A DNA stretch of 64,000 nucleotides from Acidimicrobiia bacterium (GTDB taxonomy: Bacteria > Actinomycetota > Acidimicrobiia > Acidimicrobiales > VFJN01), in assembly GCA_046537875.1 (NCBI GenBank), contig JBKHJZ010000001.1, positions 16,253 through 80,252 of the forward strand. Direction: 5' to 3'. The notes under the pieces were generated by a model. The model was not told the origin of the DNA, made no database searches, and saw nothing but the letters and a program-made list of their open reading frames with translations. Shown piece by piece: positions 7,056-49,920 of the stretch. The translations under genes and the position numbers were made by a program. Numbering within the stretch: position 1 is the first letter of the stretch; each line of letters starts with the position of its first letter.

Positions 7056-7068
7056 CCGCGGAGGAGCG

Positions 7069-9179: not shown

Positions 9180-9210
9180 TCCACCGACCCGTTGAACCAG
9201 GAGGACTCCC

Positions 9211-18503: not shown

Positions 18504-19112
18504 TCAACGGCGTTCCCGCGCGGCGCGCGGTGGACGCGGGCCCTCGAGCTCGGTGAGGTACCGCTCGACCGCCTTCCGCGTCTCCGCGTGCCCGAGGCGC
18601 AGGCCCAGGCCGTCCTCCAGCGCGAGCACCCGGGTCACCGACGACAGCAGGACGAGCAGCACGATGGTCGGCACCGGCCCGGTGTCGACCCCGTAGCCCT
18701 CGAGGATGCGGGTCACCGCCTCGACCTCGCGGCGGCGGAACCGCTCGGCGTACTGCGCCACGTCGGCGCGGATCGCCGTGCGGTGGTTGGCCAGCGCCAT
18801 CAGCTCGACGGTGAACGCGGTGCCGGCCGGGTCGTTGCTGAACTCCCACAGGGCCCACAGCGGCTGCTCGGAGGCGAGCGCCCGGGCGTGGCGTTCGAGG
18901 TTCCGTTCCGCGCCGCGCCGGAAGAGGGCGAGGAGCAGGTCGTCCATGGTGCGGAAGTAGTAGTGCACCAGCTGCGGCTTGAGCCCCGCGCGCGCCGCGA
19001 CCTTGCGCGAGGTGACCGCCGCGTACCCGTCCTCGATCATCAGGGCGTGTGCGGCGTCGAGCAGCGCAGCCCTGGTCTCGGAGTCCTCGGCACCGATCCG
19101 GCGTCGGCTCAT
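18504..19112 (-). CDS. TetR family transcriptional regulator
   Basis: HTH region VTSRKVAARAGLKPQLVHYYFRTMDDLL. ATG at 19112 (GAGGA lies 9 nt upstream) is preferred over the ORF-track start at 19151, which has no RBS and overlaps a palindrome. Confidence 0.8.
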   Translation of the reverse strand: MSRRRIGAEDSETRAALLDAAHALMIEDGYAAVTSRKVAARAGLKPQLVHYYFRTMDDLLLALFRRGAERNLERHARALASEQPLWALWEFSNDPAGTAFTVELMALANHRTAIRADVAQYAERFRRREVEAVTRILEGYGVDTGPVPTIVLLVLLSSVTRVLALEDGLGLRLGHAETRKAVERYLTELEGPRPPRAARERR

Positions 19113-19150: not shown

Positions 19151-19181
19151 TAGCCGGGAATGTTTGACGGCGCTCTCAGGA

Positions 19182-20720
19182 ATGCGAAGAATGCTTCCGA
19201 TGTCGGCGTCGCACCCGCTGCTGCACCACGGCCTGGCGCGGGCGGCGGCGCGCCGGGGTGACCACGTCGCCCTCCGCGCGGGCGACCGTGCCTGGTCCTT
19301 CGCCGAGCTGGACCGGTGCGCCCGTGGCTTCGCCAGGGTGCTCGCCGGGCGGGGCATCGGCCCGGGGCGGCGCGTGGCGGTGATGATGTCGAACCGGCCT
19401 GAGCTCGTCGTGGCGGTGCACGCCGTGAGCCGGGTCGGCGCAGCCGCCGTCCTGCTGAGCCCGGCGTGGAAGGAACGGGAGGTCGGGCACGCCCTCGACC
19501 TCACCGAGCCCGTCCACGCGGTCGCCGACGGCGACGCCACCTCGATGCTCGCGACGCGGCTCGGCCACGACGGCGTCACCGACGTCGACTCGCCGCCGTT
19601 GCTCGAGCGGGCGGCGTCGACCGCCGACGAGCCCGAGCCACCGGTCGACGACACGGCCGAGGCGGTGCTCGTCTTCAGCTCCGGCACCACCGGCATGCCG
19701 AAGGCCGTGCGCCACACCCACCGCTCGCTCGGCCACGCCACCGACCACTGGGTGGCGTCGCTCGGCCTCGGCCCCGACGACCGCTTCCAGGTGGCGACGC
19801 CGCCGTCCCACATCCTCGGGCTGCTCAACCTCCTCGCCGCGGCGTCGGCCGGCGCCACCGTCCGGCTGCACGCCCGGTTCGACCTCGACGAGGTGCTGCG
19901 CTGCATCGGTTCCGACCGGCTCACCCTCGAGATGGCGGTGGCGCCCATCGCCCTGGCGATGGCGAACCACCCCGACCTCGAGCGCCACGACCTCTCGTCG
20001 CTGCGGTACATCATGTGGGGGGCCACCCCGGTCACGCCGCAGGTCGCCGAGCGCGTCACCGAGCGGACCGGCGTGCGCTGGCTGCCGGCCTACGGCGCGA
20101 GCGAGCTGCCCGTCATCGCCTGCAACCCCGTCGACCGGCCCGGCGACTGGCGGCTGGACTCCGCCGGCCTCCCCCCGGCCGGCGTCGAGCTGCGCGTGGT
20201 CGACCTCGACACCGGCGCCGCGCTCGCGCCGGGCGAGGTCGGCGAGATCCAGGTGCGCAGCGCCTCGGCCATGGCCGGCTACCTGCCCGACGACGCCACC
20301 GCCGCCGCCTTCGACGACGGCTGGTTCCGGACCGGCGACGTCGGCTGGCTCGAGCCGGCGGGCTGGGTGCACCTCACCGACCGGTCGAAGGAGATGATCA
20401 AGGTCAAGGGCTTCCAGGTCGCCCCCGCCGAGATCGAGTCCGTGCTGCACGGTCACCCGGCCGTGCTCGACTGCGCCGTGTTCGGCGTCCCCGACGACGC
20501 GGCGGGCGAGGTGCCGGTCGCCGCGGTGCGGCTCGATCCCGGGCGGCCGGTGGCGGACGGTGAGCTCGCGCAGCTGGTCGCCGACTCCCTGGCCACCTAC
20601 AAGCGCCTGTCTCGCGTGATCGTCGTCGACCGCATCCCGCGGCTGCCGTCCGGCAAGGTGCTGCGGCGGGAGCTGCGCGCGGCGTGGACGCCGCTCGCCG
20701 GGGTGGAGGGAGACCGCTGA
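19182..20720 (+). CDS. AMP-dependent acyl-CoA ligase (4-coumarate-CoA-ligase-like)
   Basis: FSSGTTGMPKAV, YGASE, FRTGDVG, IKVKGFQVAPAEIE and SGKVLRR motifs. Three in-frame ATGs (19182, 19191, 19200) leave the start uncertain. Confidence 0.8.
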   Translation: MRRMLPMSASHPLLHHGLARAAARRGDHVALRAGDRAWSFAELDRCARGFARVLAGRGIGPGRRVAVMMSNRPELVVAVHAVSRVGAAAVLLSPAWKEREVGHALDLTEPVHAVADGDATSMLATRLGHDGVTDVDSPPLLERAASTADEPEPPVDDTAEAVLVFSSGTTGMPKAVRHTHRSLGHATDHWVASLGLGPDDRFQVATPPSHILGLLNLLAAASAGATVRLHARFDLDEVLRCIGSDRLTLEMAVAPIALAMANHPDLERHDLSSLRYIMWGATPVTPQVAERVTERTGVRWLPAYGASELPVIACNPVDRPGDWRLDSAGLPPAGVELRVVDLDTGAALAPGEVGEIQVRSASAMAGYLPDDATAAAFDDGWFRTGDVGWLEPAGWVHLTDRSKEMIKVKGFQVAPAEIESVLHGHPAVLDCAVFGVPDDAAGEVPVAAVRLDPGRPVADGELAQLVADSLATYKRLSRVIVVDRIPRLPSGKVLRRELRAAWTPLAGVEGDR

Positions 20721-21733
20721 TGGACGTCCGCCACTCACCCGAGCAGGTCGCGCTGGGAGACTCGGTGCGGCGGGTCGTCGAGCGCCTGGGTCCCGCGTCG
20801 GTCGGCCAGCTCGACGACGGCGAGCGGGCGGCCAAGCTCGACGCCGCGGTCGGGGACGCTGGTTGGCGCGAGCTGCGGAACCCCGTGGACGCCACCGGCG
20901 CTCCGTGGGCGTCCGCCGTGGAGGTGGCGATCGTGGCCGAGGCGTTGGCCCGGGGTCGCGCCGACGCCGCCTTCCTCGGTCCCGTCCTCGCCGCCGATCT
21001 GCGCCGGCTCGCCGGTGTGCCCGATGCGCTCGGGCCCGAGACCGTGGCGCTCGCCGCCGGCCTGGCCGCCCTCGCGGTCGTCGGCGACGACGCCGTCGCC
21101 CTCGATGCGTTCGGCGAGGGATCGGCGCTGCTGCTCGTGCCGGCCCCGGATGGCTGGTCGCTCGGCGCGGTGCCCGTCGCGGGTCGGGGGGACGGCGTCG
21201 ACCTCACCCGGCCGACGGCGCCGGTGCCGGTCGGTGCCGCGCGGGGCGTGGAGGGGGCGGGCGTCCTGGGCCCGACCGAGCTCGACCGCTGGACGGCCCT
21301 GGCCCTCGCCGTGACGGCTGCGGACCTGGTCGGCACGATGGCCGGGGCCGTCGCGCTCGCCGTCGACCACGCCGCCCAGCGGCACCAGTTCAGCCGGGCC
21401 ATCGGCTCCTTCCAGGCGGTGCAGCACCTCCTCGCGGACGCCGTGGTCCACACCGAGGGATCACGCAGCGCGGCACTGCACGCAGCCTGGGCGGTCGACG
21501 CCCTCCCGCCGGCCGAGGCGCTCGCCGCCGCCGCGCGGGCGAAGGCCTACGCCGCCCGTGCCGCGCGGACCGTGTGCGAGACCGCCATCCAGGTGCACGG
21601 CGGGATCGGCAACACCTGGGACTGCCTGGCGCACGTGCACCTGCGCCGGGCGCTGCTCTCCACCGACATCCTCGGCGGCGTCGGACCCAACCTGGCCCGG
21701 GTGCTCGCTCACGCCGGCGTCGGGGGTGGGTGA
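20720..21733 (+). CDS. ACAD-fold protein, beta-type subunit of pair 2
   Basis: The ATG shares 1 nt with the upstream TGA (20718-20722). It keeps QFSRAIGSFQAVQHLLAD, but its C-terminus (STDILGGVGPNLARVLA) lacks the GGTxxIQRN motif. Confidence 0.7.
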   Translation: MDVRHSPEQVALGDSVRRVVERLGPASVGQLDDGERAAKLDAAVGDAGWRELRNPVDATGAPWASAVEVAIVAEALARGRADAAFLGPVLAADLRRLAGVPDALGPETVALAAGLAALAVVGDDAVALDAFGEGSALLLVPAPDGWSLGAVPVAGRGDGVDLTRPTAPVPVGAARGVEGAGVLGPTELDRWTALALAVTAADLVGTMAGAVALAVDHAAQRHQFSRAIGSFQAVQHLLADAVVHTEGSRSAALHAAWAVDALPPAEALAAAARAKAYAARAARTVCETAIQVHGGIGNTWDCLAHVHLRRALLSTDILGGVGPNLARVLAHAGVGGG

Positions 21734-22863
21734 TGGACTTCGCGGACTCCCCCGAGGAGGCCGCCTTCCGCTCGCGCCTGCGCCGGTGGCTCGCCGGGCA
21801 CACCCCGAAGCTCGGCGCCTCGTCGACCAGCGACGAGTACTGGGAGGCCCAGCCCCGCTGGCACCGGTCGCTCTACCGGGCCGGCTGGTTCGGGCTGTCG
21901 TGGCCGGAGGAGTACGGGGGCCACGGCCTGCCGAGCGTCTACGACGTCATCCTCGACGACGAGCTGGCCAACGCCGGCGCACCGCCGCGGCCCAGCCTCG
22001 GCTACCTCGTGCAGGGCATCCTCCACCACGGGTCCGACGAGGTGAAGCGGCGGTTCCTGCCGGGGCTGATCAGCGGAGACGACCGGTGGTGCCAGGGCTT
22101 CAGCGAGCCCGACGCCGGCTCCGACCTCGCGTCCCTGCGCACGCGTGCCGAGCCCGACGGAGACGACTACGTCGTCACCGGCCACAAGGTCTGGACCAGC
22201 TACTCCGACCTCGCCGACTGGTGCCTCCTGCTGGCCCGCACCGACCCCGACGTGCCGAAGCACAAGGGCCTCTCCGCGTTCGCCATCCGCATGGACCAGG
22301 CGGGCGTCGAGCAACGGCCGCTGACGATGATCAACGGCGTCACCCGGGAGTTCGGCGAGGTGATCTTCGACGGCGCCCGGGTCCCGGCCGGGAACATGAT
22401 CGGCGCGCCCGGCGAGGGCTGGCCGCTGGCCATGACCATCGTCAGCCACGAGCGCGAACCGCACGAGCTCGGCTTCGCCAGCCGCTACCGCAAGACCGTC
22501 GGCGAGCTCACGACCCTCGTGCGCCGGCACCCGGAGCGCTACGGGGACGAGGAGCGACGCGAGCTCGCCTGGGCGATCGTCGAGGCCGACATGCTCCAGC
22601 GCCACGTCAGCCGGCGCCTGTCCGACCGCCTCGGGGGTGTGGCGCACGGCCCCGAGGGGTCGATCGACAAGCTGCTGATGACGTGGGTCGAGCAGGCGGT
22701 GGGCCACGCCGCGCTGGCCGTCGGCGGGTGCGCGCACGAGGGCGGGGACGACGCCCACCTGCGCACCTACCTCTACAGCCGGGCCCAGAGCGTGATGGGC
22801 GGCACCTCGCAGATCCAGCGGAACCTCGTGGCCCGGCGCATCCTCCGGTTGCCGGACGCGTGA
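21733..22863 (+). CDS. Acyl-CoA dehydrogenase, alpha-type subunit of pair 2
   Basis: The ATG shares 1 nt with the upstream TGA (21731-21735). WCQGFSEPDAGSDLAS motif, and a C-terminal MGGTSQIQRNLVARRIL with Gln at the MCAD-type Glu position. Confidence 0.85.
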   Translation: MDFADSPEEAAFRSRLRRWLAGHTPKLGASSTSDEYWEAQPRWHRSLYRAGWFGLSWPEEYGGHGLPSVYDVILDDELANAGAPPRPSLGYLVQGILHHGSDEVKRRFLPGLISGDDRWCQGFSEPDAGSDLASLRTRAEPDGDDYVVTGHKVWTSYSDLADWCLLLARTDPDVPKHKGLSAFAIRMDQAGVEQRPLTMINGVTREFGEVIFDGARVPAGNMIGAPGEGWPLAMTIVSHEREPHELGFASRYRKTVGELTTLVRRHPERYGDEERRELAWAIVEADMLQRHVSRRLSDRLGGVAHGPEGSIDKLLMTWVEQAVGHAALAVGGCAHEGGDDAHLRTYLYSRAQSVMGGTSQIQRNLVARRILRLPDA

Positions 22864-23016
22864 TGCCCGGCGACATCCGCGTCCTCTGCCGCCCGGTGGT
22901 GTCGGCCCGGTGCGCCCACGAAGTGGGCCGTGACGTCGTCCACGTCGACCAGACTCTGACAGCGGCGCCCGGGCCGACCGGCGCGCCGGGGCCGACACGA
23001 GAGGGGAGGGGGTCCG

Positions 23017-24318
23017 GTGTCGTGGGACTTCGAGACCGATCCTGAGTACCAGGCCAGGCTGGACTGGGCCGACCGGTTCGTGCGCGAGGAGGTCGAGCCG
23101 CTCGACCACCTCTTCCCGCACCAGCAGTTCGTCCCCCTCGACGGCGCCCGCCGCACGATCGTCGACCCGCTCAAGGACGAGGTCCGCCGCCAGGGCCTCT
23201 GGGCCACCCACCTCGGCCCCGAACTGGGAGGCCAGGGGTTCGGCCAGCTCAAGCTGGCGCTGCTGAACGAGATCCTCGGCCGGTCGTCGTGGGCGCCGGT
23301 CGTCTTCGGGACCCAGGCGCCCGACACCGGCAACGCCGAGATCCTCGCCCACTACGGCACCCCGGAGCAGAAGGACCGCTACCTGCAGCCGCTGCTCGAC
23401 GGCGAGTGCTTCTCGACCTTCTCGATGACCGAGCCCCACGCCGGCGCCGACCCGACCATGTTCCGGACCCGGGCGGTGAGGGACGGCGACGAGTGGGTCA
23501 TCAACGGCGACAAGTACTTCTCGTCGAACGCGCGCACCGCCTCGTTCCTCATCGTCATGGCGGTCACCGACCCCGACGTCAGCCCGTACACGGGCATGTC
23601 GATGTTCCTGGTCCCCACCGACACGCCGGGCATCGAGATCGAGCGCAACGTCGGGCTGTTCGGCGAGCCGATCGGCGAGGGCTCGCACGCGCTCATCCAC
23701 TACCGCGACGTCCGCGTGCCCGACTCGGCGATGCTCGGCGGGGAGGGGCAGGCGTTCGCCGTCGCCCAGACCCGCCTGGGCGGCGGGCGCATCCACCACG
23801 CCATGCGCACCGTCGGCCTCGCCCGCCAGGCGCTCGACATGATGTGCGAGCGGGCCCTCAGCCGCGAGACCCAGGGCAGCCTGCTCGCCGACAAGCAGTT
23901 CGTGCAGGGCTACATCGCCGACTCGTGGGCCCAGCTCGAGCAGTTCCGCCTGCTCGTGCTGCGCACGGCGTGGCGCATCGACACGTTCAACGACTACCGG
24001 AAGGTCCGCAAGGACATCGCCGCCGTGAAGGTCGTCATGCCCACGGTGCTGCACGACATCGCCTGGCGGGCGATGCAGGTGCACGGGGCGCTCGGCACCA
24101 CGAACGAGATGCCGTTCTTCGGCATGATCCTCGGCGCCGGGGTCATGGGCCTGGCCGACGGGCCCACCGAGGTCCACAAGGTCACGGTTGCCCGCCAGGT
24201 GCTGCGGGACCACCGGCCGGCCGAGGGCATGTGGCCCACCGGGTGGATCCCGGGGAAGATCGAGGCCGCCCGGGAGAAGTACGCCGCGCTGCTCGAGCTC
24301 GAGGAGGGGAACCTGTGA
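23017..24318 (+). CDS. Acyl-CoA dehydrogenase of the ACAD10/ACAD11/FadE2 type
   Basis: 433 aa. SMTEPHAGADPT, and a C-terminal LADGPTEVHKVTVARQVL (the DGPxEVH variant typical of the ACAD10/11 clade). Confidence 0.85.
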   Translation: MSWDFETDPEYQARLDWADRFVREEVEPLDHLFPHQQFVPLDGARRTIVDPLKDEVRRQGLWATHLGPELGGQGFGQLKLALLNEILGRSSWAPVVFGTQAPDTGNAEILAHYGTPEQKDRYLQPLLDGECFSTFSMTEPHAGADPTMFRTRAVRDGDEWVINGDKYFSSNARTASFLIVMAVTDPDVSPYTGMSMFLVPTDTPGIEIERNVGLFGEPIGEGSHALIHYRDVRVPDSAMLGGEGQAFAVAQTRLGGGRIHHAMRTVGLARQALDMMCERALSRETQGSLLADKQFVQGYIADSWAQLEQFRLLVLRTAWRIDTFNDYRKVRKDIAAVKVVMPTVLHDIAWRAMQVHGALGTTNEMPFFGMILGAGVMGLADGPTEVHKVTVARQVLRDHRPAEGMWPTGWIPGKIEAAREKYAALLELEEGNL

Positions 24319-25415
24319 CCGCGCCCGCCGCCGGATCCGACGCCGGACCCACCACCGGCGTGCCCGCCCTCGACGCCGGCCGGACCGGGCGCCTCGCCGC
24401 GTGGATGGACGCCGCTGGCCTGCCCGGCACGGGTGCGCCGCTCGAGTCGCGTTTCATCTCCGGGGGGAGCCAGAACGAGATCTACGAGCTGCGCCGGGGC
24501 GACCTGCGCTGCGCGATGCGCATCCCGCCGGCCACCGCGCCGGCCCCGCGCGACGACGGCATCGTGCGCGAGTGGCGGATCATCGAGGCCCTCGGGGGCA
24601 CCGACGTCCCCCACACCCACGCCGTCGCGCTGTGCACCGACCGGTCGGTGCTCGGGCGCACCTTCTACCTGATGGGCTTCGTCGACGGGTGGTCGCCGAT
24701 GGACCTCGAGCCCGGCCCGGACGGGCGCCGCTGGCCCGAGCCGTTCCACAGCGACCCGGCCGCCCGGCGCGGCCTCGCCTTCGAGCTGGTCGAGGGCATC
24801 GCCCGCCTGGGCAACGTCGACTGGCGCGCCCGCGGGCTCGACGACCTCGGGCGCCCCGACGGCTTCCACGACCGCCAGGTCGACCGCTGGACCGCCTTCC
24901 TCGACCGCATCAAGGGCCGCGAGCTGCCCGGCTTCGACGAGGCCGCGGCCTGGCTGCGAACCCACCGCCCGCTCGACTACGTGCCCGGGATCATGCACGG
25001 CGACTACCAGTTCGCCAACGTCATGTTCGAGCACGGCGCACCCGCCCGCCTCGCTGCGATCGTCGACTGGGAGATGGGCACCGTCGGCGACCCGAAGCTC
25101 GACCTGGGCTGGGTGGTGCACTCGTGGCCGGAGGAGACCGACACCGGTGACGGCTCGGTCGGCGGCTACGTCGACATGACGCACATGCCGAGCCGGTCCG
25201 ACGTGCTGGCCCGCTACGCCGAGGTGTCGGGCCGGCAGGTCGACGACATCGACTACTACTGCGTGCTCGCCAAGTGGAAGCTGGCGGTGGTGCTCGAGCA
25301 GGGCTACCAGCGGGCCACCGACGACACGCCGGCGCTCCAGGCCTTCGGGCCGATCGTGCTCGACCTCATGCGGGAGGCCGCCGAGCTGGCCGAGACCACC
25401 ACCTACGGCTCGTGA
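24315..25415 (+). CDS. Phosphotransferase (aminoglycoside-phosphotransferase-like kinase fold)
   Basis: GTGA overlap with the upstream ACAD (24315-24318). Catalytic loop IMHGDYQFANVMF and IVDWEMGTVGDPKLDL motif. Confidence 0.85.
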   Translation: MTAPAAGSDAGPTTGVPALDAGRTGRLAAWMDAAGLPGTGAPLESRFISGGSQNEIYELRRGDLRCAMRIPPATAPAPRDDGIVREWRIIEALGGTDVPHTHAVALCTDRSVLGRTFYLMGFVDGWSPMDLEPGPDGRRWPEPFHSDPAARRGLAFELVEGIARLGNVDWRARGLDDLGRPDGFHDRQVDRWTAFLDRIKGRELPGFDEAAAWLRTHRPLDYVPGIMHGDYQFANVMFEHGAPARLAAIVDWEMGTVGDPKLDLGWVVHSWPEETDTGDGSVGGYVDMTHMPSRSDVLARYAEVSGRQVDDIDYYCVLAKWKLAVVLEQGYQRATDDTPALQAFGPIVLDLMREAAELAETTTYGS

Positions 25416-25540
25416 GCGGCGACTCCCTCCTCGTCGAGGAGCGCCGGGGCCGGATCGTGGCCGTGTCCGGGAGCCGGGACGCCGTCGAGGGCGCCACCGC
25501 CTACGTGGAGAAGCGCGACCCGGTGTGGCAGGCCCGCTGA
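25412..25540 (+). pseudogene. 42-codon mini-ORF resembling the fused N- and C-termini of an enoyl-CoA hydratase (internal-deletion relic)
   Basis: GTGA overlap with the kinase stop (25412-25415). Its stop lies 1 nt before the next start (25542). SLLVEERRGRIVAV resembles a crotonase first strand, and DAVEGATAYVEKRDPVWQ resembles the crotonase C-terminal EG..AF.EKR.P motif. Confidence 0.4.
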
Positions 25541-25541
25541 C

Positions 25542-26528
25542 GTGCGCGCCGCCGTCTGCCCCGAGCTCGGTCCGCCCGAGGTCGTGCGCATCGAGGACCT
25601 GCCGTCGCCCGAGGTCGGCGACGGGCAGGTGCGGGTCGGCGTCGAGGTCGCCGCCCTGAACTTCCCGGACGTGCTCCTCGTCGCCGGGACGTACCAGATC
25701 CCGGCGGACCCGCCCTTCGTGCCGGGCAGCGAGCTGGCCGGCACCGTCCTCGAGGTCGGGGCCGGCGTCGGCCACGTCGCGGTCGGTGACCCGGTCGTCG
25801 GCACGGGGCTGGTCGGCGCCTTCGCCGAGGAGGTCGTGCTGGCTGCCCATGCCGTGCAGCGCCGGCCGCCGGGCGTCGACGCCGACGTCGGCGCCGCGTC
25901 GGGCGTCACCTACCGGACGGCGTGCCACGTCCTGCGCTCGGTCGCCCGCCTGGCCCCCGGCGACCAGCTGGTGGTGCTCGGCGCGGGTGGCGGCGTCGGC
26001 TCCGCGGCCGTGCAGCTGGGGGCCCAGATGGGCGCCACGGTCACGGCCGTGGCCTCGTCGCCGGCGAAGCTCGACGTGGCGCGGCACCTCGGGGCGACGC
26101 ACCTGGTCGAGCACCGCACGGTCGACCTCCGCCGGGCGCTGCGCGACCTGTTGCCCGACGGTGCCGATGTCGTGGTCGATCCGGTGGGCGGGGCCCTGTC
26201 GGAGCCGGCGCTGCGCTCGCTGCGCTGGGGCGGCCGGTTCGTGACGGTCGGGTTCGCCTCCGGGGAGATCCCCCGCATCCCGCTGAACCTCGTGCTGCTC
26301 AAGGGCGTCCAGGTTCTCGGGTTCCAGTTCGTCGATTTCGCCACCCACGCGCCCGACGACCTCGCCCGCAACGAGGCGGAGCTGGCCGAGCTGCTCGCCT
26401 CCGGCGCGGTCCGTCCCCACATCGGGGCGACCTACCCGCTCGAGCGCACCGCCGAGGCGCTCCGCCTCGTGGCCGACGGGCAGGCGGTCGGCAAGGTCCT
26501 GATCCGGGTCGCGGAGGGGGAGCGATGA
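25542..26528 (+). CDS. Medium-chain dehydrogenase/reductase, NADPH:quinone-oxidoreductase-like
   Basis: 328 aa. PGSELAGTV and VLGAGGGVGSAAVQLG nucleotide-binding motifs, with no structural-zinc Cys cluster. Confidence 0.85.
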   Translation: MRAAVCPELGPPEVVRIEDLPSPEVGDGQVRVGVEVAALNFPDVLLVAGTYQIPADPPFVPGSELAGTVLEVGAGVGHVAVGDPVVGTGLVGAFAEEVVLAAHAVQRRPPGVDADVGAASGVTYRTACHVLRSVARLAPGDQLVVLGAGGGVGSAAVQLGAQMGATVTAVASSPAKLDVARHLGATHLVEHRTVDLRRALRDLLPDGADVVVDPVGGALSEPALRSLRWGGRFVTVGFASGEIPRIPLNLVLLKGVQVLGFQFVDFATHAPDDLARNEAELAELLASGAVRPHIGATYPLERTAEALRLVADGQAVGKVLIRVAEGER

Positions 26529-27295
26529 CCAGCCCGGCCGAGCGGTTCGACCTCACGGGGAAGGTGGCGGTCGTCACGGGCGGCAGCCGCGGCATCGGCC
26601 GGGCGGTGGCCGAGGGGCTGGCCGCCGCCGGGGCCGACGTCGTCGTCGCCAGCCGGAAGCTCGACGCATGCGAGCGGGCCGCCGCCGAGATCGCGGCGAC
26701 CACCGGTCGCCGCGCCGTCCCGGTCGCCTTCCACGCCGGGCGCTGGGAGGACTGCGACCGCCTCGCCGAGGCGGTGTACGCCGAGCTCGGGCGGTGCGAC
26801 GTGCTGGTGAACAACGCCGGGATGTCGCCGCCCTACGAGAGCCTCGCCGACGTGACGCCGGAGCTGTACGACAAGGTCCACGCCGTGAACGCCCGGGGCC
26901 CGTTCCGGCTCGGCGTGCTGCTCGGCGCGCGGATGGCCGAGGCCGACGGCGGCTCGATCATCAACGTCAGCACCGCCGGGTCGCTGCGGCCCGGCGTCGG
27001 CGAGCTGCCCTACGCCATGGCCAAGGCCGGGCTCAACGCCCTCACGCTCGGCCTGGCGGGTGCGTGGGCGCCGAAGGTGCGGGCCAACCTCGTGCTGCCC
27101 GGCGCCTTCGACACCGACATCACCGACGCCTGGGGCCCGGACGTGAAGCGCCGGGCCGGCGCCATGAACCCGATGGGCCGCATCGGGCAGCCGGGGGACA
27201 TGGTGGGCGTGTGCCTGTTCCTGGCCAGCGATGCGTCGGCCTACGTCAACGGCGCGCAGATCCTCGTCGACGGTGGCCTGTACCGGACGCTGTGA
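26525..27295 (+). CDS. SDR family oxidoreductase
   Basis: ATGA overlap (26525-28). TGGSRGIG, NNAG and YAMAKAG motifs. Confidence 0.85.
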   Translation: MTSPAERFDLTGKVAVVTGGSRGIGRAVAEGLAAAGADVVVASRKLDACERAAAEIAATTGRRAVPVAFHAGRWEDCDRLAEAVYAELGRCDVLVNNAGMSPPYESLADVTPELYDKVHAVNARGPFRLGVLLGARMAEADGGSIINVSTAGSLRPGVGELPYAMAKAGLNALTLGLAGAWAPKVRANLVLPGAFDTDITDAWGPDVKRRAGAMNPMGRIGQPGDMVGVCLFLASDASAYVNGAQILVDGGLYRTL

Positions 27296-27317: not shown

Positions 27318-28361
27318 ATGAACGCACCGGCACCGATCCGGGTCGTCCAGTGGGCGACCGGCAACATCGGGACCCGCTCGCTCCGGGCGGTGATCGAGCA
27401 CCCGCGCCTCGAGCTGGTCGGCGTGTGGGTGCACAGCCCGGGCAAGGTCGGCCGGGACGCCGCCGAGCTGTGCGGGCTCGACGCGCCCACCGGCGTGCCG
27501 GCCGCCTCCGACATCGACGAGATCGTCGCCCTCGACGCCGATGTCGTCCTCTACATGCCCCAGGGCTGCGACGTCGACGCCGTCGCCAGGTTGCTCGCGT
27601 CGGGCAAGGACGTCGTCACCACCCGCGGGGAGTTCCACCGCCCGGACAGCCTCGATCCCGACGTGCGGGCGCGCATCGACGCCGCGTGCGAGGCCGGGGG
27701 CAGCTCGATCCACAGCACCGGCAGCAGCCCCGGCTTCATCACCGAGGCGGTGCCGATCGTGCTCACGTCGCTGTCGCGCCGGCTCGACCGGCTCACGATC
27801 GAGGAGTACGCCGACATGTCGAGGCGGCCGTCGCCGCAGCTGATGTTCGACGTCATGGGCTTCGGGAAGCCGCCGGCCGAGCTGAAGCCGGGGCGTGCCC
27901 AGCACCTCCTCCACGCGTTCGGGCCGTCGCTCCAGGCGACCACGGAGGCGCTCGGGCTGTCGCTCGACGGCTTCGACGCCACCGAGCAGGTCGCCACCGC
28001 GAACTCGGACGTCGACGTGGCCGCCGGCACCATCCGGGCGGGCACGGTGGGTGGCATGCGCACCGTGATCACCGGGCTGCGGGGCGGCGAGGAGCTCATC
28101 CGGTTCGTCGCCACGTGGTGGTGCACGGACGACCTGGATACCGACTGGGACGTGCTGCCGACTGGCTGGCGCGTCCGGGTCGCGGGCGACGTCCCGATGG
28201 ACGTCCGGCTCGTGTTCGACGTTCCCGTCGAGCGCATGGCCGAGCACTCGCCCGGCTTCACCGCGCACCGGGCCGTGAACGCCGTGCCGGTCGTGCATGC
28301 CGCTCCGCCCGGCATCCGCACGACCGCCGACCTGCCCCAGATCATCGCCCAGCTCGGCTGA
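27318..28361 (+). CDS. NAD(P)-binding oxidoreductase of the dihydrodipicolinate-reductase-N-domain-like family (paralog 1)
   Basis: ATG at 27318 follows GGAGGGGGA. N-terminal IRVVQWATGNIGTRSL Rossmann-like start, which is shared with the gene at 28754..29812. Confidence 0.7.
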   Translation: MNAPAPIRVVQWATGNIGTRSLRAVIEHPRLELVGVWVHSPGKVGRDAAELCGLDAPTGVPAASDIDEIVALDADVVLYMPQGCDVDAVARLLASGKDVVTTRGEFHRPDSLDPDVRARIDAACEAGGSSIHSTGSSPGFITEAVPIVLTSLSRRLDRLTIEEYADMSRRPSPQLMFDVMGFGKPPAELKPGRAQHLLHAFGPSLQATTEALGLSLDGFDATEQVATANSDVDVAAGTIRAGTVGGMRTVITGLRGGEELIRFVATWWCTDDLDTDWDVLPTGWRVRVAGDVPMDVRLVFDVPVERMAEHSPGFTAHRAVNAVPVVHAAPPGIRTTADLPQIIAQLG

Positions 28362-28416: not shown

Positions 28417-28626
28417 CTACTTCGGCAGGCGCAGCGACATGAACAGGATGTGCTCGCGCTCGTACTCGTCGGCCATCTCCGGGTGCTTCTCCCGGAGGTG
28501 GGCGAAGGCGGTGTCGACGAGCTCGTCCTCGGTGTCGCCGGTCAGCGTGTCCCCGCACGGGCACCGGAGCACGTGGTGGTACTGGCGCGTCGACCTGGTG
28601 TCGTCGCTCCCGCTCATGGCCAGCAC
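28417..28626 (-). CDS. Small Cys/His protein (DUF1059-like pattern CxCG...DEDELV...H...H)
   Basis: 69-aa ORF (or 66 aa from the ATG at 28617). LRCPCGDTLTGDTEDELVDTAFAHLREKHPE. Codon usage is coding-like. Confidence 0.5.
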   Translation of the reverse strand: MLAMSGSDDTRSTRQYHHVLRCPCGDTLTGDTEDELVDTAFAHLREKHPEMADEYEREHILFMSLRLPK

Positions 28627-28753: not shown

Positions 28754-29812
28754 TCAGCACGTCGTCGGCACGTAGCCCCTCGGGAGCGGCAACGGCAGGT
28801 CGTTGTAGGTCGCGATGCCCGGTGGCGCCGCGACCACGGCCGGGACGGCGTTCACCGCAGGGAGCGCCGTCATGATCATGCCGAGGACCATGAAGTCGGC
28901 GAACGTCGTCGCCTCGAAGTCCGGTGGCGGCAGGTACTCGACCCGGGTCCGCACGGTGGGCCGGCCATCGATGGTGATGGTGTGGCCCTCGTCGATGGCC
29001 CAGTCGGGCTCGAGCGTCTGGCCCTTCTTCCAGCGCACGTTGAGCTCGACCACGGTGCGCCCGCCGACCCGTCCCTGCCAGCTCGCGGCCACGCCGGCGA
29101 CGTGCCCGGCGGGGATGGTCCAGGAGTCCATGACCACGTCCTCGGTGGTCCGGGCGTACTCCGGTTCGCAGACGATCTCGTCCAGCTCCACGCCGACGGC
29201 GTCGGCCACCATCGCCACCGCCTCTCCGAACACCGCCGTCCCCGCCGCAGCCATGGGCTCGAGGCCCGGGTCGTCGATCGGCCGGCCGAAGCCGCAGGGC
29301 CGTTCCGTCTCCGGTGAGTCGTACAGCGTGGTGTCGGACGCCTCGTCGACGACGACCTTGTCGATGCGGTCGCAGATGCCGGCGAGCATGATCGCGAGCG
29401 AGTCGATCCAGCCGGGGCTGATGCCGGTGCCGAAGATCGTGGCGCCGCCCCGCTCGCACGCCGTGGCGATCCGGTCCCGATCCGCGCCGAGCCGGTTCCC
29501 GTTGACGAACGCGGCGGTGCTGACCACGTTCACGCCGGCCTCGAGGATGCGGACGACCTCCCCGGTGTCGGGCCACATCGGCGTGTAGACGACGCAGTCC
29601 GGCTCGAGGGCGAGCAGGGCGTCGACGTCGTCGGTCGCCGCCACGCCGACCGGTCCGATCCCGCACAGCTCGCCGACGTCACGTCCCACCTTGCCGGCCG
29701 ACCAGGCGTAGCACCCCACCAGCTTCAGGTCGGGGCGTCCGACCACGGCGCGCACCGCGCGCCTGCCCACGTTGCCGGTGGTCCACTGCACCACCCGGAT
29801 CGCCATGACCAT
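28754..29812 (-). CDS. NAD(P)-binding oxidoreductase, dihydrodipicolinate-reductase-N-domain-like family (paralog 2)
   Basis: IRVVQWTTGNVGRRAV start. It is colinear, with clear similarity, to the gene at 27318..28361 along its full length. Confidence 0.7.
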   Translation of the reverse strand: MVMAIRVVQWTTGNVGRRAVRAVVGRPDLKLVGCYAWSAGKVGRDVGELCGIGPVGVAATDDVDALLALEPDCVVYTPMWPDTGEVVRILEAGVNVVSTAAFVNGNRLGADRDRIATACERGGATIFGTGISPGWIDSLAIMLAGICDRIDKVVVDEASDTTLYDSPETERPCGFGRPIDDPGLEPMAAAGTAVFGEAVAMVADAVGVELDEIVCEPEYARTTEDVVMDSWTIPAGHVAGVAASWQGRVGGRTVVELNVRWKKGQTLEPDWAIDEGHTITIDGRPTVRTRVEYLPPPDFEATTFADFMVLGMIMTALPAVNAVPAVVAAPPGIATYNDLPLPLPRGYVPTTC

Positions 29813-29871: not shown

Positions 29872-31065
29872 TCAGCGGGGCAGCCCCAGGACCCGCTCGG
29901 CGATGATGTTGCGCTGGATCTGCGAGGTCCCCCCGGCGATGGTCCCGGCGAAGCTGCGCAGGTAGCGGTCGAACCAGCCCTCGCCGTGGGCCTCGCTGTC
30001 GAGGTGGTACGGGGGGATGGTGCGCTCGGTGTGGTCGAGGGCGTCGGGGCCGAGAGCCTCGAGCACCTGCAGCGTCGCGCGCTGGACGGCCTCCGAGCCG
30101 AACAGCTTCAGGATCGACTGCTCGGTGGCCACCATGCCCTTGCGGGCCTTGGCCAGCGTGCGGAAGCCGAGCAGGCGGATCGCCTCGGCGTCGACCACGA
30201 GCGAGCCGAACCAGTCGAGGACGGCGGCGTCGTCGGCCAGGCCGCGGTCGGCGAGCGCCCGCCCGCCGGTCCGCACCAGGTCGTCGAGCGTGTCGCTGTA
30301 GTTGAGCCACAGCATCGCCCGCTCGTGCCCGAGCGACCCGGTGGCCACGGTCCAACCCTCGTGGAGGCCACCGACGAGGTTCTCGGCCGGCACCTCCACG
30401 TCGTCGAAGAACACCTCGTTGAAATCGGTGTCGTCCGGGCTGATGAGCGAGCCGAACGGCCGGCGCGTCACGCCCGGCGTGTCGGTGGGGATCAGCAGGC
30501 AGCTGATGCCCCTGTGCTTGGGCGCGTCCGGGTCGGTGCGCACGAAGGCGAGGATGACGTCGGCGTGGTGCGCGCCGGAGGTCCACACCTTCTGGCCGTT
30601 GACGACGAAGCGGTCGCCGTCGAGCTCGGCCCGGGTGCGCAGGCCGGCGAGGTCGGAGCCGGCGTCGGGTTCGCTCATGCCGAGGGCGCCGGTGATCTCG
30701 GCGCGCAGGATCCGCTTCGCCCAGCGCTGCTTCTGCTCCCCGGTGCCGAAGGCGAGGATCGACGGAGCGATGATGGCGAGGCCCTGGGGGTTGAAGCTGG
30801 GGTAGATGTGGCGCCGGTGCAGCTCCTGCTGGTGCACGAACTGCTCGAGCACAGAGGCGTTGCGGCCGCCGTACTCCGGCGGGTTGCCGGGCACGAGCCA
30901 GCCGGCGTCGAACATCGTGCGCTGCCAGCGACGGGCCCACCCGGGGATGTGTGCGCTCGAGGTCGCCCGCTCGGTGGTCTCGGCCGGGTGGGGGGCGTTG
31001 GCCTCCAACCACTCGACGAACTCGGCGCGGAACGCCTCGGTCTGGTCGTCGAACCGGAGCCTCAT
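29872..31065 (-). CDS. Acyl-CoA dehydrogenase, alpha-type subunit of pair 3
   Basis: ATG at 31065 overlaps the upstream stop (ATGA, 31062-31065). GMSEPDAGSDLAG, and a C-terminal IAGGTSQIQRNIIAERVL. Confidence 0.85.
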   Translation of the reverse strand: MRLRFDDQTEAFRAEFVEWLEANAPHPAETTERATSSAHIPGWARRWQRTMFDAGWLVPGNPPEYGGRNASVLEQFVHQQELHRRHIYPSFNPQGLAIIAPSILAFGTGEQKQRWAKRILRAEITGALGMSEPDAGSDLAGLRTRAELDGDRFVVNGQKVWTSGAHHADVILAFVRTDPDAPKHRGISCLLIPTDTPGVTRRPFGSLISPDDTDFNEVFFDDVEVPAENLVGGLHEGWTVATGSLGHERAMLWLNYSDTLDDLVRTGGRALADRGLADDAAVLDWFGSLVVDAEAIRLLGFRTLAKARKGMVATEQSILKLFGSEAVQRATLQVLEALGPDALDHTERTIPPYHLDSEAHGEGWFDRYLRSFAGTIAGGTSQIQRNIIAERVLGLPR

Positions 31066-32138
31066 CGGGCCAGGACCTCCTTCGCCACACGCGCCCGGTG
31101 CTCCGCCGAGGTGCCGAGCAGCAGCTCGCCCACCTTCGCCCGGCGCACGAACAGGTGCAGGTCGTTCTCCCAGGTGAAACCCAGGCCGCCGAAGAACTGG
31201 ATGCCGTGCTGGACGGCGACGCGCTGGGCGTCGCCGGCCGCGGCCTTGGCCATGGAGGCGGCGAGGTGCCGGCGGTCGTCGGCCTCGTCGATGGCGAGCC
31301 CGGCGAACTGGCACACGGCCCGGGCCCGCTCGATGGCGATGTGCACGTCGGCCGCCATGTGCTTCAGCGCCTGGAACGAGCCGATCGGGACGCCGAACTG
31401 CCTTCGCTCCCGGATGTGGCCGAGGGCGAGGTCGAACGACCGCTGCGAGGCGCCGACCATCGTGGCGGCCAGCCCGGCGGTGGCGGTCGCCCGGGCGGTG
31501 GCCACGCCCTCGTCGCCACCGGCGAGCAGGGCCCGGCCGGCGTCGACCGGCACCCCGTCGAGCGTCACCTCGGCCACGTGGAGGGCCGCGTCGAAGGTGG
31601 TCTGCCGGGTGGCGGTCACGTCGGCTGCGGCGACCACGAAGGCCGCCGTGCCGTCGCCGGTGCGGGCGACCACGGCGAGCTCGTCGGCCCGGTCACCGTC
31701 GACGACGTTGCGGGCCGTCCCGCTGAGGCGCCACGACGCACCGTCGCGGCTGGCGGTGACGTCGCCGTCGAAGGCCGCCGCGCCGGTGCCGCCGGACAGG
31801 ACCGGTCCGAGCAGCGACGCCCGTTGGTCGTCGTCACCGCACCAGCGAACGAGCGGCGCGTACTGGCTGGTGGTGGCGAGGAACGGGGTGGGGTCGGCGA
31901 CCCGTCCCAGCTCCTCGAGCACGAGCACGAGCTCGACCGTGCCGAGGCCCATGCCGCCCAGCGCGCCGGGGACGACCAGGCTCGGCCAGTCGAGGCCGAC
32001 GTAGGTCTTCCACAGCGAGCCGCCGTCGCTGGTGCCGGCGATGACGGCCCGCACGAGGGCCGTGGGGCACTCCCGTTCGGCGACCTCGCGCACGACCTGC
32101 TGGAGCGCCAGCTGGTCGTCGGTGAGCTCGAAGTCCAC
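31062..32138 (-). CDS. ACAD-fold protein, beta-type subunit of pair 3
   Basis: QFGVPIGSFQALKHMAAD is kept. The C-terminus ELLLGTSAEHRARVAKEVL lacks the GGTxxIQRN motif. Confidence 0.75.
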   Translation of the reverse strand: MDFELTDDQLALQQVVREVAERECPTALVRAVIAGTSDGGSLWKTYVGLDWPSLVVPGALGGMGLGTVELVLVLEELGRVADPTPFLATTSQYAPLVRWCGDDDQRASLLGPVLSGGTGAAAFDGDVTASRDGASWRLSGTARNVVDGDRADELAVVARTGDGTAAFVVAAADVTATRQTTFDAALHVAEVTLDGVPVDAGRALLAGGDEGVATARATATAGLAATMVGASQRSFDLALGHIRERRQFGVPIGSFQALKHMAADVHIAIERARAVCQFAGLAIDEADDRRHLAASMAKAAAGDAQRVAVQHGIQFFGGLGFTWENDLHLFVRRAKVGELLLGTSAEHRARVAKEVLAR

Positions 32139-45556: not shown

Positions 45557-45583
45557 GTGCCGTCGAGCCAGGAGAAGAGCGCC

Positions 45584-47340: not shown

Positions 47341-47347
47341 GGAGAGC

Positions 47348-49904: not shown

Positions 49905-49920
49905 TCTGACAGTCGGGTCA
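49905..49920. promoter_or_regulatory. Operator-like site TCTGACAGTCGGGTCA (TGAC-N6-GTCA)
   Basis: It lies between the double-TetR stop (which it overlaps) and the start of the SDR-tesB-LLM genes. It matches the site at 52231-52246 at 14 of 16 positions (that site read on the opposite strand). Confidence 0.4.

Follow-up and report, generated by a model that had tools for sequence, protein, structure and literature searches.

The phospho-elimination route for 4-hydroxy acids was reportedly defined in 2017 in Pseudomonas and in 2024-2025 in mammals. According to the published biochemistry, this chemistry is performed by LvaA/LvaC, by their B. pseudomallei orthologues and by ACAD10/11. In mammalian ACAD10/ACAD11 a kinase and an acyl-CoA dehydrogenase (ACAD) form one polypeptide. 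In the P. putida lva operon they are separate genes (LvaA kinase and LvaC ACAD), with the 12-kDa LvaB encoded between them and an SDR (LvaD) and a ligase (LvaE) in the same cluster, and the regulator is the sigma-54-dependent LvaR. Homologues of lvaABCD have been reported from Alpha-, Beta- and Gammaproteobacteria. Mutagenesis and cryo-EM of ACAD11 assigned 4-phosphate binding and catalysis to R626, H634, R637 and D753, the first three being on the helix beside the catalytic base, and the pocket accepts plain 4-phosphoacyl chains; ACAD10/11 are without activity on unsubstituted acyl-CoAs (PMC12440821). In the kinase domain, R176 and the Arg beside the alpha-C Glu were modelled as CoA contacts, and the ATP-dependent kinase activity is directed at 4-hydroxyacyl-CoA and not at the free acid (PMC12440821). 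1-O-alkylglycerol kinase activity has also been described for the kinase domain of ACAD10 and for several homologues from prokaryotes; the prokaryotic enzymes phosphorylate chimyl alcohol, some of them in an acetyl-CoA-dependent manner, and the Lys of HYDxK is essential in the C. thermarum kinase (preprint PMC13596139).

The 64-kb stretch of acidimicrobial DNA analysed here, referred to as the window, carries on its forward strand a gene for a 433-aa ACAD of the ACAD10/11/LvaC type (23017..24318), followed by a gene for a 366-aa APH-fold kinase of the ACAD10/11-kinase/LvaA family (24315..25415). Both genes start with GTG and were delimited by GC3 frame plot, translation and Pfam. A Shine-Dalgarno-like GGAGGGGG (23005..23012, +), read directly from the sequence, lies 4 nt 5' of the ACAD start. 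As the first-pass annotation had noted, the kinase start overlaps the ACAD stop by GTGA (24315..24318, +; 4 nt, within ...AAC CTG TGA CC...), an arrangement indicative of translational coupling. Public annotation gives 'acyl-CoA dehydrogenase family protein' and 'phosphotransferase family protein' and nothing more specific. No NCBIfam model reached its curated cut-off for either protein, the kinase giving weak capreomycin/viomycin phosphotransferase matches only. We consider it probable that the pair is a split bacterial ACAD10/ACAD11 (LvaA/LvaC) system for 4-hydroxyacyl-CoA phospho-elimination. This was the proposal of the first-pass annotation, and the defining residues, score gap, phylogeny, synteny and co-divergence presented below all point to it.

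The ACAD has Acyl-CoA_dh_N, Acyl-CoA_dh_M and Acyl-CoA_dh_1 domains (Pfam). The DGPTEVH C-terminal variant seen at first pass is present as LADGPTEVH (aa 379-387) and contains the catalytic Asp381. This residue aligned with ACAD11 D753, the column being fixed by the D753N mutant chain 8v3v; the conventional 5ol2 has Glu there. In a residue-column comparison the predicted phosphate-binding residues R253, H261 and R264 corresponded to ACAD11 R626, H634 and R637. All three fall within TRLGGGRIHHAMR, a motif invariant in 66 of the 68 ACAD orthologues, and conventional ACADs have T, I, Q or gaps in these columns. The Arg/His/Arg cluster plus catalytic Asp was absent from all six conventional ACADs compared, four of which came from the window. 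The general Arg of the window ACAD is R258. The protein carries all the residues defining the ACAD10/11/LvaC subfamily: it matches mammalian ACAD10/ACAD11 (8V3U, 8V3V, 2WBI) in the Arg/His/Arg cluster and in the catalytic Asp of LADGPxEVH, and it has the residues reported as uniquely shared by LvaC and ACAD10/11. Its top matches among solved structures (phmmer against PDB) were 4hr3 (262 bits) and ACAD11 (251-260 bits), with conventional ACADs at 152 bits or less, a gap of more than 100 bits. Identity was 42% to ACAD11 and 22-30% to conventional ACADs. A homologue search gave at least 8000 matches, all with E < 1e-30 and with other ACAD subfamilies included; the best 120 of these were full-length orthologues, 81-91% identical.

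The kinase matched Pfam APH with 1.1e-27. Both motifs reported for it at first pass, HGDYQFAN and DWE...GDP, were found, the former at aa 228-235 (D230, N235) and the latter as DWEMGTVGDP at aa 251-260 (D251-W-E). The D230 column is fixed by the ACAD11 D220A mutant chain 8v3u, and N235 is the equivalent of ACAD11 N225; the catalytic Asp, the Asn and DWE were invariant in 81 of 81 orthologues. The beta-3 Arg69, R85-E86 of helix alpha-C and the CoA-contact R187 (ACAD11 R176) are also kept; the alpha-C Arg is offset by 2 residues from the published 'R86' label, its equivalence being defined by its position beside the Glu. The ACAD10/ACAD11 kinase domain thus shares with the window kinase the APH fold, catalytic Asp/Asn, DWE, beta-3 Arg and CoA-contact Arg. 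R187 and R85-E86 were common to all ACAD-linked kinases compared, and in the unlinked APH Rv3168 these positions are occupied by His, His and Gln. The highest PDB matches were 3dxp and 9o56 (148 bits each), and the ACAD11 kinase domain, to which the window kinase is 27% identical, scored 82-85 bits. Gln232, after the catalytic Asp, is invariant in the 81 orthologues and replaces a Lys found in ACAD11 and in the C. thermarum kinase. ACAD-linked kinases vary at this position (Q, H, K or R), and the Lys-to-Gln change was rejected as an argument against family membership.

Among the matched structures, 4HR3 (a putative ACAD of Mycobacterium abscessus) has the same Arg/His/Arg/Asp residues as the window ACAD and groups with ACAD11, Deinococcus and Bosea, outside the window subclade. 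3DXP, an APH-fold Cupriavidus protein named 'putative acyl-CoA dehydrogenase', has the catalytic and Arg residues of the window kinase and groups with the ACAD11 kinase domain. To our knowledge, both are structural-genomics entries that are functionally uncharacterised. 9O56 is presumably the ACAD10-like 1-O-alkylglycerol kinase of Caldalkalibacillus thermarum. The C. thermarum kinase resembles the window kinase in its APH fold, beta-3 Arg, alpha-C Glu, catalytic Asp/Asn and DWE, but belongs to another kinase subclade, with Deinococcus (100% bootstrap), and the Lys of its HYDxK is Gln (HGDYQ) in the window kinase.

In a neighbour-joining tree the window ACAD fell in the ACAD10/11-like clade (91% bootstrap), in agreement with the first-pass assignment, and the window kinase grouped with ACAD-linked kinases. 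Placement relative to LvaA/LvaC was by published identities and by the residues reported as shared by LvaC and ACAD11. Because LvaC is reported to be 56-62% identical to ACAD11/10, compared with 42% for the window ACAD and ACAD11, the window ACAD was assigned to a subclade apart from LvaC. This subclade comprised the same five taxa in the neighbour-joining trees of the ACAD (92% bootstrap) and of the kinase (95%), and the two proteins co-diverge. An ACAD gene adjoined the kinase gene in 66 of 77 related loci, the 4-nt overlap was kept in at least 38 of 67, and the motifs showed little or no variation across 81 kinase and 68 ACAD orthologues. Because of this motif conservation, adjacency and retention of the overlap across orthologous loci, the arrangement is not attributable to chance. 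A phosphotransferase gene was also found within about 3.5 kb of an ACAD homologue in replicons of Rhodococcus, Streptomyces, Massilia, Deinococcus and Bosea, being directly adjacent in four of them. Fusion proteins were found that join SDR and kinase (P0157), kinase and hydratase, and ACAD and kinase. The ACAD-kinase-MDR trio was present in 44 of 68 loci. The conserved module is ACAD-kinase-MDR reductase, with SDR and enoyl-CoA hydratase as recurrent partners. The whole 8-gene stretch was rejected as a conserved operon, the FadD-like ligase, two-subunit ACAD and DapB-like genes being syntenic in few loci.

Compared with the single kinase-ACAD polypeptide of ACAD10/ACAD11, the window has two genes that overlap, with the ACAD gene first, and no HAD domain. 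The ACAD is extended at its C-terminus by about 35 aa (aa ~398-433), a tail that an alignment showed to be specific to its subclade, and in the kinase a Gln replaces the Lys that comes after the catalytic Asp. The likeness to the lva operon lies in the separate kinase and ACAD genes of one cluster; an SDR (26525-27295) and a FadD-like ligase (19182-20720), candidate counterparts of LvaD and LvaE, are on the same strand as the pair. The lva order, kinase-(LvaB)-ACAD, is however reversed, and the overlap leaves no ORF between the two genes, where lva encodes LvaB. No LvaB-like small partner was identified near the window pair; LvaB is missing from the P. citronellolis cluster as well. The MDR reductase and, ancestrally, the hydratase are additions relative to lva. 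The nearest regulator is a divergent TetR, in contrast to LvaR, and a scan of 53 window genes detected no sigma-54 activator domain. Unlike the proteobacterial carriers of lvaABCD reported so far, the host is an actinobacterium.

The short gap between kinase and MDR genes was considered as a site for LvaB and rejected; the small ORF there is an in-frame relic of a crotonase-type enoyl-CoA hydratase (25412..25540, +; 42 codons), whose translation comprises 16 N-terminal and 26 C-terminal residues. The GTG of the relic overlaps the TGA of the kinase gene, and 1 nt separates its own TGA from the MDR start. A full-length hydratase (~260 aa) occupies this position in 11 related loci, and the relic was 60-62% identical to it at both ends of the alignment. 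The MDR gene (25542..26528, +) encodes a 328-aa zinc-less protein of the quinone-oxidoreductase/enoyl-reductase type (Pfam, NCBIfam), with PDB matches to QORs, MECR and PKS ER domains. No other neighbour of the pair is as conserved: the MDR gene lies 3' of the kinase gene in 49 of 71 loci, and the protein is 49% identical to the QOR beside the ACAD-kinase pair of Rhodococcus DK17. The next gene (26525..27295, +), which shares its first 4 nt with the stop end of the MDR gene, encodes a classical SDR of 256 aa (Pfam), a candidate LvaD-like 4-oxoacyl-CoA reductase. It was 51-52% identical (229-249 bits) to the pair-adjacent SDRs of Massilia and Streptomyces, and the other window SDRs scored 99 bits or less. 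As judged from sequence, the SDR and MDR genes found repeatedly beside the ACAD-kinase pair are orthologous, and the SDR orthologues span other phyla. A 347-aa DapB_N/DAP_DH_C oxidoreductase follows (27318..28361, +; Pfam, NCBIfam; PDB matches 7xdu, 6g1h and 6g1m), from a protein family assigned to the native amine dehydrogenase/2,4-diaminopentanoate dehydrogenase superfamily (PMC11164908). The first-pass annotation had placed the MDR, SDR and DapB-like genes in one operon with the pair. They do share a strand and are tightly spaced, and the MDR and, within the subclade, the SDR are recurrent partners; the DapB-like gene is rarely syntenic, a homologue with more than 50% identity being nearby in 7 of 80 related loci only.

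By homology, the kinase would transfer phosphate from ATP to the 4-hydroxyl group of a 4-hydroxyacyl-CoA, recognising the CoA moiety through the conserved arginines. The resulting 4-phosphoacyl-CoA would be bound by the Arg/His/Arg cluster of the ACAD, with Asp381 as the base. FAD would take part in a net redox-neutral cycle in which the alpha-beta bond is oxidised, phosphate is eliminated and the intermediate is re-reduced, so that a 2-enoyl-CoA could pass to ordinary beta-oxidation. Gene structure, overlap, defining residues, subfamily placement, synteny and co-divergence were observed directly; this chemistry, the chain length of the substrate and what the reductases do are inferred. It is a weaker suggestion that the SDR, and probably also the MDR, make the 4-hydroxyacyl-CoA from 4-oxo and/or 2-enoyl precursors, with the SDR in the role of LvaD and the MDR reducing the C=C bond. 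Enzymes of the MDR class usually reduce C=C bonds or quinones, and the part played by the MDR in the pathway is therefore not obvious, which counts against the main reading. So do the low identities to ACAD11 (42% for the ACAD, 27% for the kinase), Gln232 at the position of the Lys essential in C. thermarum, the failure to identify an LvaB-like partner, the reversed gene order and the TetR in place of LvaR. The dedicated hydratase may originally have hydrated the product before it decayed to the relic, and hydratases elsewhere in the window may have taken over its role.

The generic public names, the absence of curated NCBIfam matches, the weak likeness of the kinase to capreomycin/viomycin phosphotransferases and the presence of at least seven further ACAD genes in the window would all fit an ordinary FAD-dependent acyl-CoA desaturase lying by chance beside an unrelated small-molecule or antibiotic phosphotransferase. 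This is extremely improbable given the change of the catalytic Glu to Asp, an Arg/His/Arg cluster absent from every conventional ACAD compared, the gap of over 100 bits to such enzymes and the inactivity of ACAD10/11 on unsubstituted acyl-CoAs (PMC12440821), and the conserved synteny, overlap and co-divergence argue the same way. It also seems very unlikely that the kinase is a 1-O-alkylglycerol kinase of ether-lipid salvage, its linkage to the ACAD reflecting a different or additional role. Prokaryotic ACAD10-kinase homologues do act on chimyl alcohol (PMC13596139), 9o56 was matched with 148 bits, and equivalents of its R61, E78, D214, N219 and DWE are present in the window kinase. However, all 81 orthologues have Gln in place of the HYDxK Lys, translational coupling and co-divergence tie the gene to an ACAD equipped for phospho-acyl-CoA, and every recurrent partner acts on CoA esters. 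A scan of 53 genes in the 64-kb window yielded neither an AGPS-like nor any other ether-lipid gene, which within that scope also counts against this role.

A further alternative retains the phospho-elimination chemistry but assigns it to a substrate class other than simple 4-hydroxy fatty acyl-CoAs, with the MDR and SDR as subclade-specific entry steps. The candidates would be 4-hydroxy/4-oxo 2-enoyl-CoAs produced by lipid peroxidation, CoA esters formed when lactone or terpenoid rings are opened, and chains with hydroxyls elsewhere. The separate, well-supported subclade (92% and 95% bootstrap), which has an MDR, an SDR and a hydratase as partners of its own and a C-terminal ACAD tail unique to it, is consistent with such a substrate, as are the C=C-reducing type of the MDR and the abundance in the region of oxygenases, ligases and ACADs for unusual lipids. 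Against this, the phosphate-binding residues and catalytic Asp are identical to those of ACAD11, whose pocket takes plain 4-phosphoacyl chains, no sequence feature specifies a substituted substrate, and the partner genes differ among loci. We regard this alternative as unlikely.

The split ACAD10/ACAD11 reading soundly annotates a pathway that was discovered only recently and does not establish a new kind of system; the window pair leaves the understanding of the mechanism unchanged. As annotation pipelines still give generic labels, the residue signature together with the gene coupling provides a simple annotation rule. Both are conserved in abundant soil Acidimicrobiia and in other actinobacteria, which extends the reported range beyond Proteobacteria. 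The MDR reductase, SDR and hydratase are nominated as candidate accessory enzymes that would help feed gamma-oxygenated acids into bacterial beta-oxidation. The subclade is marked by the ACAD C-terminal tail, the kinase-loop Gln and the MDR/SDR/hydratase partners, and its taxa are Acidimicrobiia, Streptomyces, Rhodococcus and some Betaproteobacteria. No biochemically characterised member of it was found in the literature, nor anything relevant on actinobacterial characterisation (FadE2, FadE36, Rhodococcus levulinate). We tentatively raise the idea, which is doubtful at present, that the pair represents a distinct uncharacterised ACAD10/11-LvaAC subclade specialised for a different entry route. 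Such a route could be NADPH-dependent C=C and 4-oxo reduction of 4-oxo/4-hydroxy 2-enoyl-CoAs arising from lipid peroxidation or oxygenases, or rescue by the MDR of 2,4-dienoyl-CoA that escapes the redox-neutral cycle of the ACAD. If true, it would constitute a soil-bacterial detoxification and assimilation route for gamma-oxygenated lipids outside the lva paradigm.

A Baeyer-Villiger monooxygenase (BVMO) about 20 kb away had been suggested at first pass as a source of hydroxy acids. The flavoprotein (43883-45556, -) is indeed a BVMO, of type I and with both fingerprints. It lies about 18.5-19 kb from the pair on the opposite strand, with a GH3 glycosidase, a TauD dioxygenase and TetR regulators between them, and on these grounds it was rejected as evidence for a lactone-to-hydroxy-acid supply. 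Related loci were compared over 10-kb flanks, a reach that the BVMO distance exceeds.

Upstream of the pair on the same strand are genes for a FadD-like acyl-CoA ligase (19182-20720) and for the small (20720-21733) and large, pimC-like (21733-22863) subunits of a probable two-subunit ACAD (all by Pfam and NCBIfam). These genes (19182..22863) may share a transcription unit with the pair; they were syntenic 5' of it in one related locus (L077) only. With consensus models that are poorly suited to high-GC actinobacteria, the terminator scan found no terminator, and the promoter scan gave a single sigma-70-like site (19164-19192), a weak lead. A divergent TetR-family regulator (18504..19112, -; Pfam TetR_N) is, by its position and orientation, a candidate for repressing the set of genes between 19.2 and 28.4 kb.

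The window had a G+C content of approximately 73%, at which raw ORF lists are unreliable, and genes were called by third-position GC periodicity. The ACAD (acyl-CoA dehydrogenase) gene (23017-24318, + strand) encodes 433 aa from a GTG start preceded by GGAGGGGG at 23005-23012. The kinase gene (24315-25415, + strand) encodes 366 aa, and its own GTG start overlaps the TGA of the ACAD gene (...CTGTGACC...). The same two gene calls were obtained on an identical 3.9-kb contig of a public read-set assembly. The closest relatives of the window were metagenome-assembled genomes of Acidimicrobiales and Acidimicrobiaceae, and in the nearest of them, L080, the ACAD was 93% and the kinase 89% identical. 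By Pfam, the ACAD has Acyl-CoA_dh_N/M/1 domains and the kinase an APH domain, in agreement with the first-pass annotation, and the motifs which that annotation had reported, DGPTEVH (within LADGPTEVH) in the ACAD and HGDYQFAN and DWE...GDP (as DWEMGTVGDP) in the kinase, were all found where it had placed them. No NCBIfam model reached its curated cut-off for either protein, and homologues carry no public name more specific than 'acyl-CoA dehydrogenase family protein' or 'phosphotransferase family protein'.

In a search against all PDB sequences, the best match of the ACAD was 4hr3 from M. abscessus (262 bits), with mouse ACAD11 at 258-260 bits and human ACAD11 at 251 bits, whereas the top conventional ACAD scored 152 bits. 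Cryo-EM and mutagenesis of ACAD11 identified the aspartate D753 as the catalytic base of the subfamily and the cluster R626, H634 and R637 as the binding site of the 4-phosphate; these residues are reported to be uniquely common to ACAD10/11 and LvaC, and their substitution abolishes ACAD-domain activity, with build-up of the phospho-intermediate (PMC12440821). In pairwise and multiple alignments they correspond to R253, H261, R264 and D381 of the window ACAD, the D753 column being fixed unambiguously by a deposited D753N mutant chain which has Asn exactly at that column. All 11 ACAD10/11-like sequences compared shared these residues and the six conventional ACADs, four of them encoded elsewhere in the window, lacked them. 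Among the 68 ACAD orthologues, TRLGGGRIHHAMR was conserved in 66 and LADGPTEVH in 65.

The best solved matches of the kinase included 3dxp, an APH-fold protein from Cupriavidus mislabelled as an ACAD, and 9o56, which is probably the ACAD10-like kinase of Caldalkalibacillus thermarum, as its IHYDYK fits the HYDxK motif of PMC13596139. The ACAD11 kinase domain matched the window kinase with 82-85 bits. The catalytic Asp is D230, in a column fixed by the D220A mutant chain, and N235, the D251-W-E motif, the beta-3 arginine R69, the Arg-Glu pair of helix alpha-C (R85-E86) and R187, the equivalent of the ACAD11 R176 that is modelled to hold CoA, were conserved. Rv3168, an unlinked mycobacterial APH protein, lacks R85, E86 and R187. 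The sole deviation was Gln232, which is Lys in ACAD11 and C. thermarum; this position is Q, H, K or R across ACAD-linked kinases, and the Gln was unchanged in all 81 close kinase orthologues.

In the published mechanism, the kinase places a phosphate on the 4-hydroxyl of a 4-hydroxyacyl-CoA, and the ACAD oxidises the alpha-beta bond, after which phosphate is eliminated and the intermediate re-reduced. This yields a 2-enoyl-CoA in a cycle that is redox-neutral overall and needs a redox-active FAD. Residues, scores, trees and synteny support the first-pass reading of the two genes as a putative 4-hydroxyacyl-CoA module of an ACAD10/11-type ACAD and an APH-like kinase, and on this sequence evidence it is likely that the window pair uses the published mechanism. 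The residue and score evidence effectively excludes a conventional ACAD lying beside an unrelated antibiotic kinase. A preprint reports that ACAD10-type kinases, prokaryotic ones included, can phosphorylate 1-O-alkylglycerols (PMC13596139), but the probability that the window kinase does so is rated as low because the essential Lys is replaced by Gln, the gene is coupled to an ACAD of the phospho-acyl-CoA type, and ether-lipid genes were not found among the 53 window genes scanned. Alternatively, the same chemistry may serve a different substrate class.

In neighbour-joining trees (200 bootstraps), the window ACAD fell inside the ACAD10/11-like clade (91%), apart from the other ACADs of the window, and grouped with those of Streptomyces, Rhodococcus DK17, Massilia and Rhodococcus ZPP in a subclade (92%) that excluded ACAD11, 4hr3 and the Deinococcus, Bosea and R. 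opacus PD630 homologues. The kinases neighbouring these same five subclade ACADs formed an equivalent clade (95%), and this congruence indicates that the two genes evolved together. The window ACAD was 42% identical to ACAD11, whereas LvaC is reported to share 56-62% identity with ACAD11 and ACAD10, and the B. pseudomallei orthologues that have been assayed to be even closer to ACAD10 than LvaC; from this we infer that the characterised members all lie outside the subclade of the window, LvaC being compared by published identities only. The pair belongs to an uncharacterised subclade of the ACAD10/11-LvaAC system and comes from a host group that the literature searched does not highlight. Its value lies chiefly in annotation and in the nomination of accessory enzymes. 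The ACADs of the subclade also share a C-terminal tail of 25-35 residues (window 24208-24315, + strand, aa ~398-433) with the motif RP..W/F-P-T/S..I-P..AA. ACAD11, 4hr3, conventional ACADs and the homologues from Deinococcus and Bosea all lack this tail, which could serve as a dock for the separate kinase.

Conservation of the gene order was assessed in 80 GTDB loci fetched with the kinase. An ACAD gene lay directly upstream of the kinase in 66 of the 77 loci with room for it, and the 4-nt stop/start overlap was kept in at least 38 of 67. An MDR gene lay downstream of the kinase in 49/71 loci, and the full trio of ACAD, kinase and MDR was present in 44/68. Other neighbours were rarer: an SDR was near the kinase in 9/80 loci and a DapB-like homologue of >50% identity in 7/80, and the FadD-like ligase and two-subunit ACAD were syntenic with the pair in very few. 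The linkage of kinase and ACAD is not universal, since in three Acidimicrobiaceae MAGs (L005, L007 and L023) no ACAD10/11-like gene was found within 10 kb of the kinase. The kinases of these MAGs were 78-79% identical to that of the window, and also carried HGDYQFAN; directly downstream of them came the SDR orthologue (77-80% identical) and a DapB-like gene.

Downstream of the window pair, Pfam identified on the same strand the three genes that the first-pass annotation had named: a zinc-less MDR (25542-26528, +), an SDR overlapping it by 4 nt (26525-27295, +) and a DapB_N/DAP_DH_C protein (27318-28361, +). The ACAD homologues on annotated replicons of other phyla likewise had a phosphotransferase gene within approximately 3.5 kb, directly adjacent in four. 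The partners there were an NADPH:quinone oxidoreductase in Rhodococcus DK17, an SDR and a hydratase in Massilia, an SDR between the ACAD and phosphotransferase genes in Streptomyces, and an SDR and a histidine phosphatase in Deinococcus. The window SDR was 51-52% identical to the Massilia and Streptomyces SDRs (229-249 bits, versus ≤99 bits to the other SDRs of the window), and the MDR was 49% identical to the Rhodococcus DK17 oxidoreductase; as these matches lie beside the pair elsewhere, both reductases are recurrent partners of the subclade. The MDR belongs to the C=C/quinone-reducing branch, with PDB matches to quinone oxidoreductases, mitochondrial enoyl-thioester reductase and PKS ER domains. 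More tentatively, the SDR would plausibly take the LvaD role, converting 4-oxo to 4-hydroxy intermediates, and the MDR may reduce a 2-enoyl precursor to the saturated form or else rescue a dienoyl intermediate. In Deinococcus aquaticus pDATS01, a histidine phosphatase family gene lies directly 3' of the kinase (7409-9243 of locus L086), and one is also reported after the kinase in a Pseudomonas citronellolis lva-like cluster without LvaB; such a phosphatase may recur as an alternative accessory gene.

When the whole library was searched with the kinase, 568 clusters were returned at E ≤ 1e-30, and the long matches included a complete SDR-kinase fusion, a kinase-hydratase fusion and an ACAD-kinase fusion. 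In four metagenomic representatives (P0157, P0128, P0146 and P0129), the kinase family was fused to a complete SDR, an enoyl-CoA hydratase, an ACAD C-terminal domain and the start of an SDR, the same partner set as in the gene neighbourhoods. Frameshifts introduced in metagenome assembly may account for some of these fusions.

The 126-nt gap between kinase and MDR holds a 42-codon ORF (25412-25540, +), whose GTG overlaps the kinase TGA (GTGA) and whose TGA ends 1 nt 5' of the MDR GTG. At the same position, 11 related loci carry a full-length crotonase-type gene of approximately 260 aa, to which the ORF aligns only over the first 16 and last 26 residues (60-62% identity), and it is therefore a relic of an enoyl-CoA hydratase left by an in-frame internal deletion. 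This suggests an ancestral order of ACAD-kinase-hydratase-MDR, and a hydratase fits a pathway with a 2-enoyl-CoA product. The relic may persist by preserving translational coupling.

Between 18.3 and 29 kb, the only sigma-70-like site was at 19164-19192 (+), just 5' of the FadD-like gene and opposite a divergent TetR gene, and no intrinsic terminator was detected. On this basis the eight co-directional genes at 19.2-28.4 kb may form one unit, although such evidence is weak in a high-GC actinobacterium. The site overlaps the first possible starts of the FadD-like gene (19182 and 19191), which points to a start codon further downstream or to a transcript without a leader, under putative control of the divergent TetR (18504-19112, -).

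The DapB-like gene at 27318-28361 (+) has a convergent paralogue at 28754-29812 (-), and both belong to the native amine dehydrogenase/2,4-diaminopentanoate dehydrogenase superfamily (PMC11164908). The enzymes of this superfamily that have been characterised work at C4 of pentanoates, on the carbonyl or the amine, and levulinate amination has been engineered into one of them. This hints at a tie to gamma-substituted acids, although similarity was weak (64-66 bits) and synteny with the pair rare. Between the two genes, a 69-codon ORF (28417-28626, -) showed a strong GC3 coding signal and no Pfam match.

The BVMO (43883-45556, -) proposed in the first-pass annotation as a supplier of the module is a true type-I enzyme, with both fingerprints, FGGVQHHTGRWP and GGTWFWNRYPGARFD. 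Its link to the pair is circumstantial, as it lies on the other strand approximately 18.5 kb away, and the genes in between include a GH3 glycosidase, a TauD dioxygenase and TetR regulators. It is flanked by genes for a Rieske ring-hydroxylating alpha subunit, a SnoaL-like protein and a luciferase-like monooxygenase (45443-48175) and, on the other side, by a 477-aa ORF without a Pfam match (42445-43878). The window is a dense region of lipid and xenobiotic catabolism, with at least eight ACAD genes, five acyl-CoA ligases, two P450s, a Rieske oxygenase, a luciferase-like monooxygenase, a thiolase, hydratases and a CoA-transferase. Three ACAD pairs (6988-9179, +; 20720-22863, +; 29872-32138, -) each combine a full-length ACAD with an adjoining ACAD-family gene with partial Pfam domain matches; NCBIfam matches, to pimC/pimD and IpdE2, were below the cut-offs. 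They look like alpha/beta heteromeric ACADs, as for bulky or ring-derived acyl-CoAs. A 436-aa regulator (49918-51228, -), adjoining a hydratase and an SDR, contains two TetR_N domains and represents a duplicated, pseudo-dimeric TetR.
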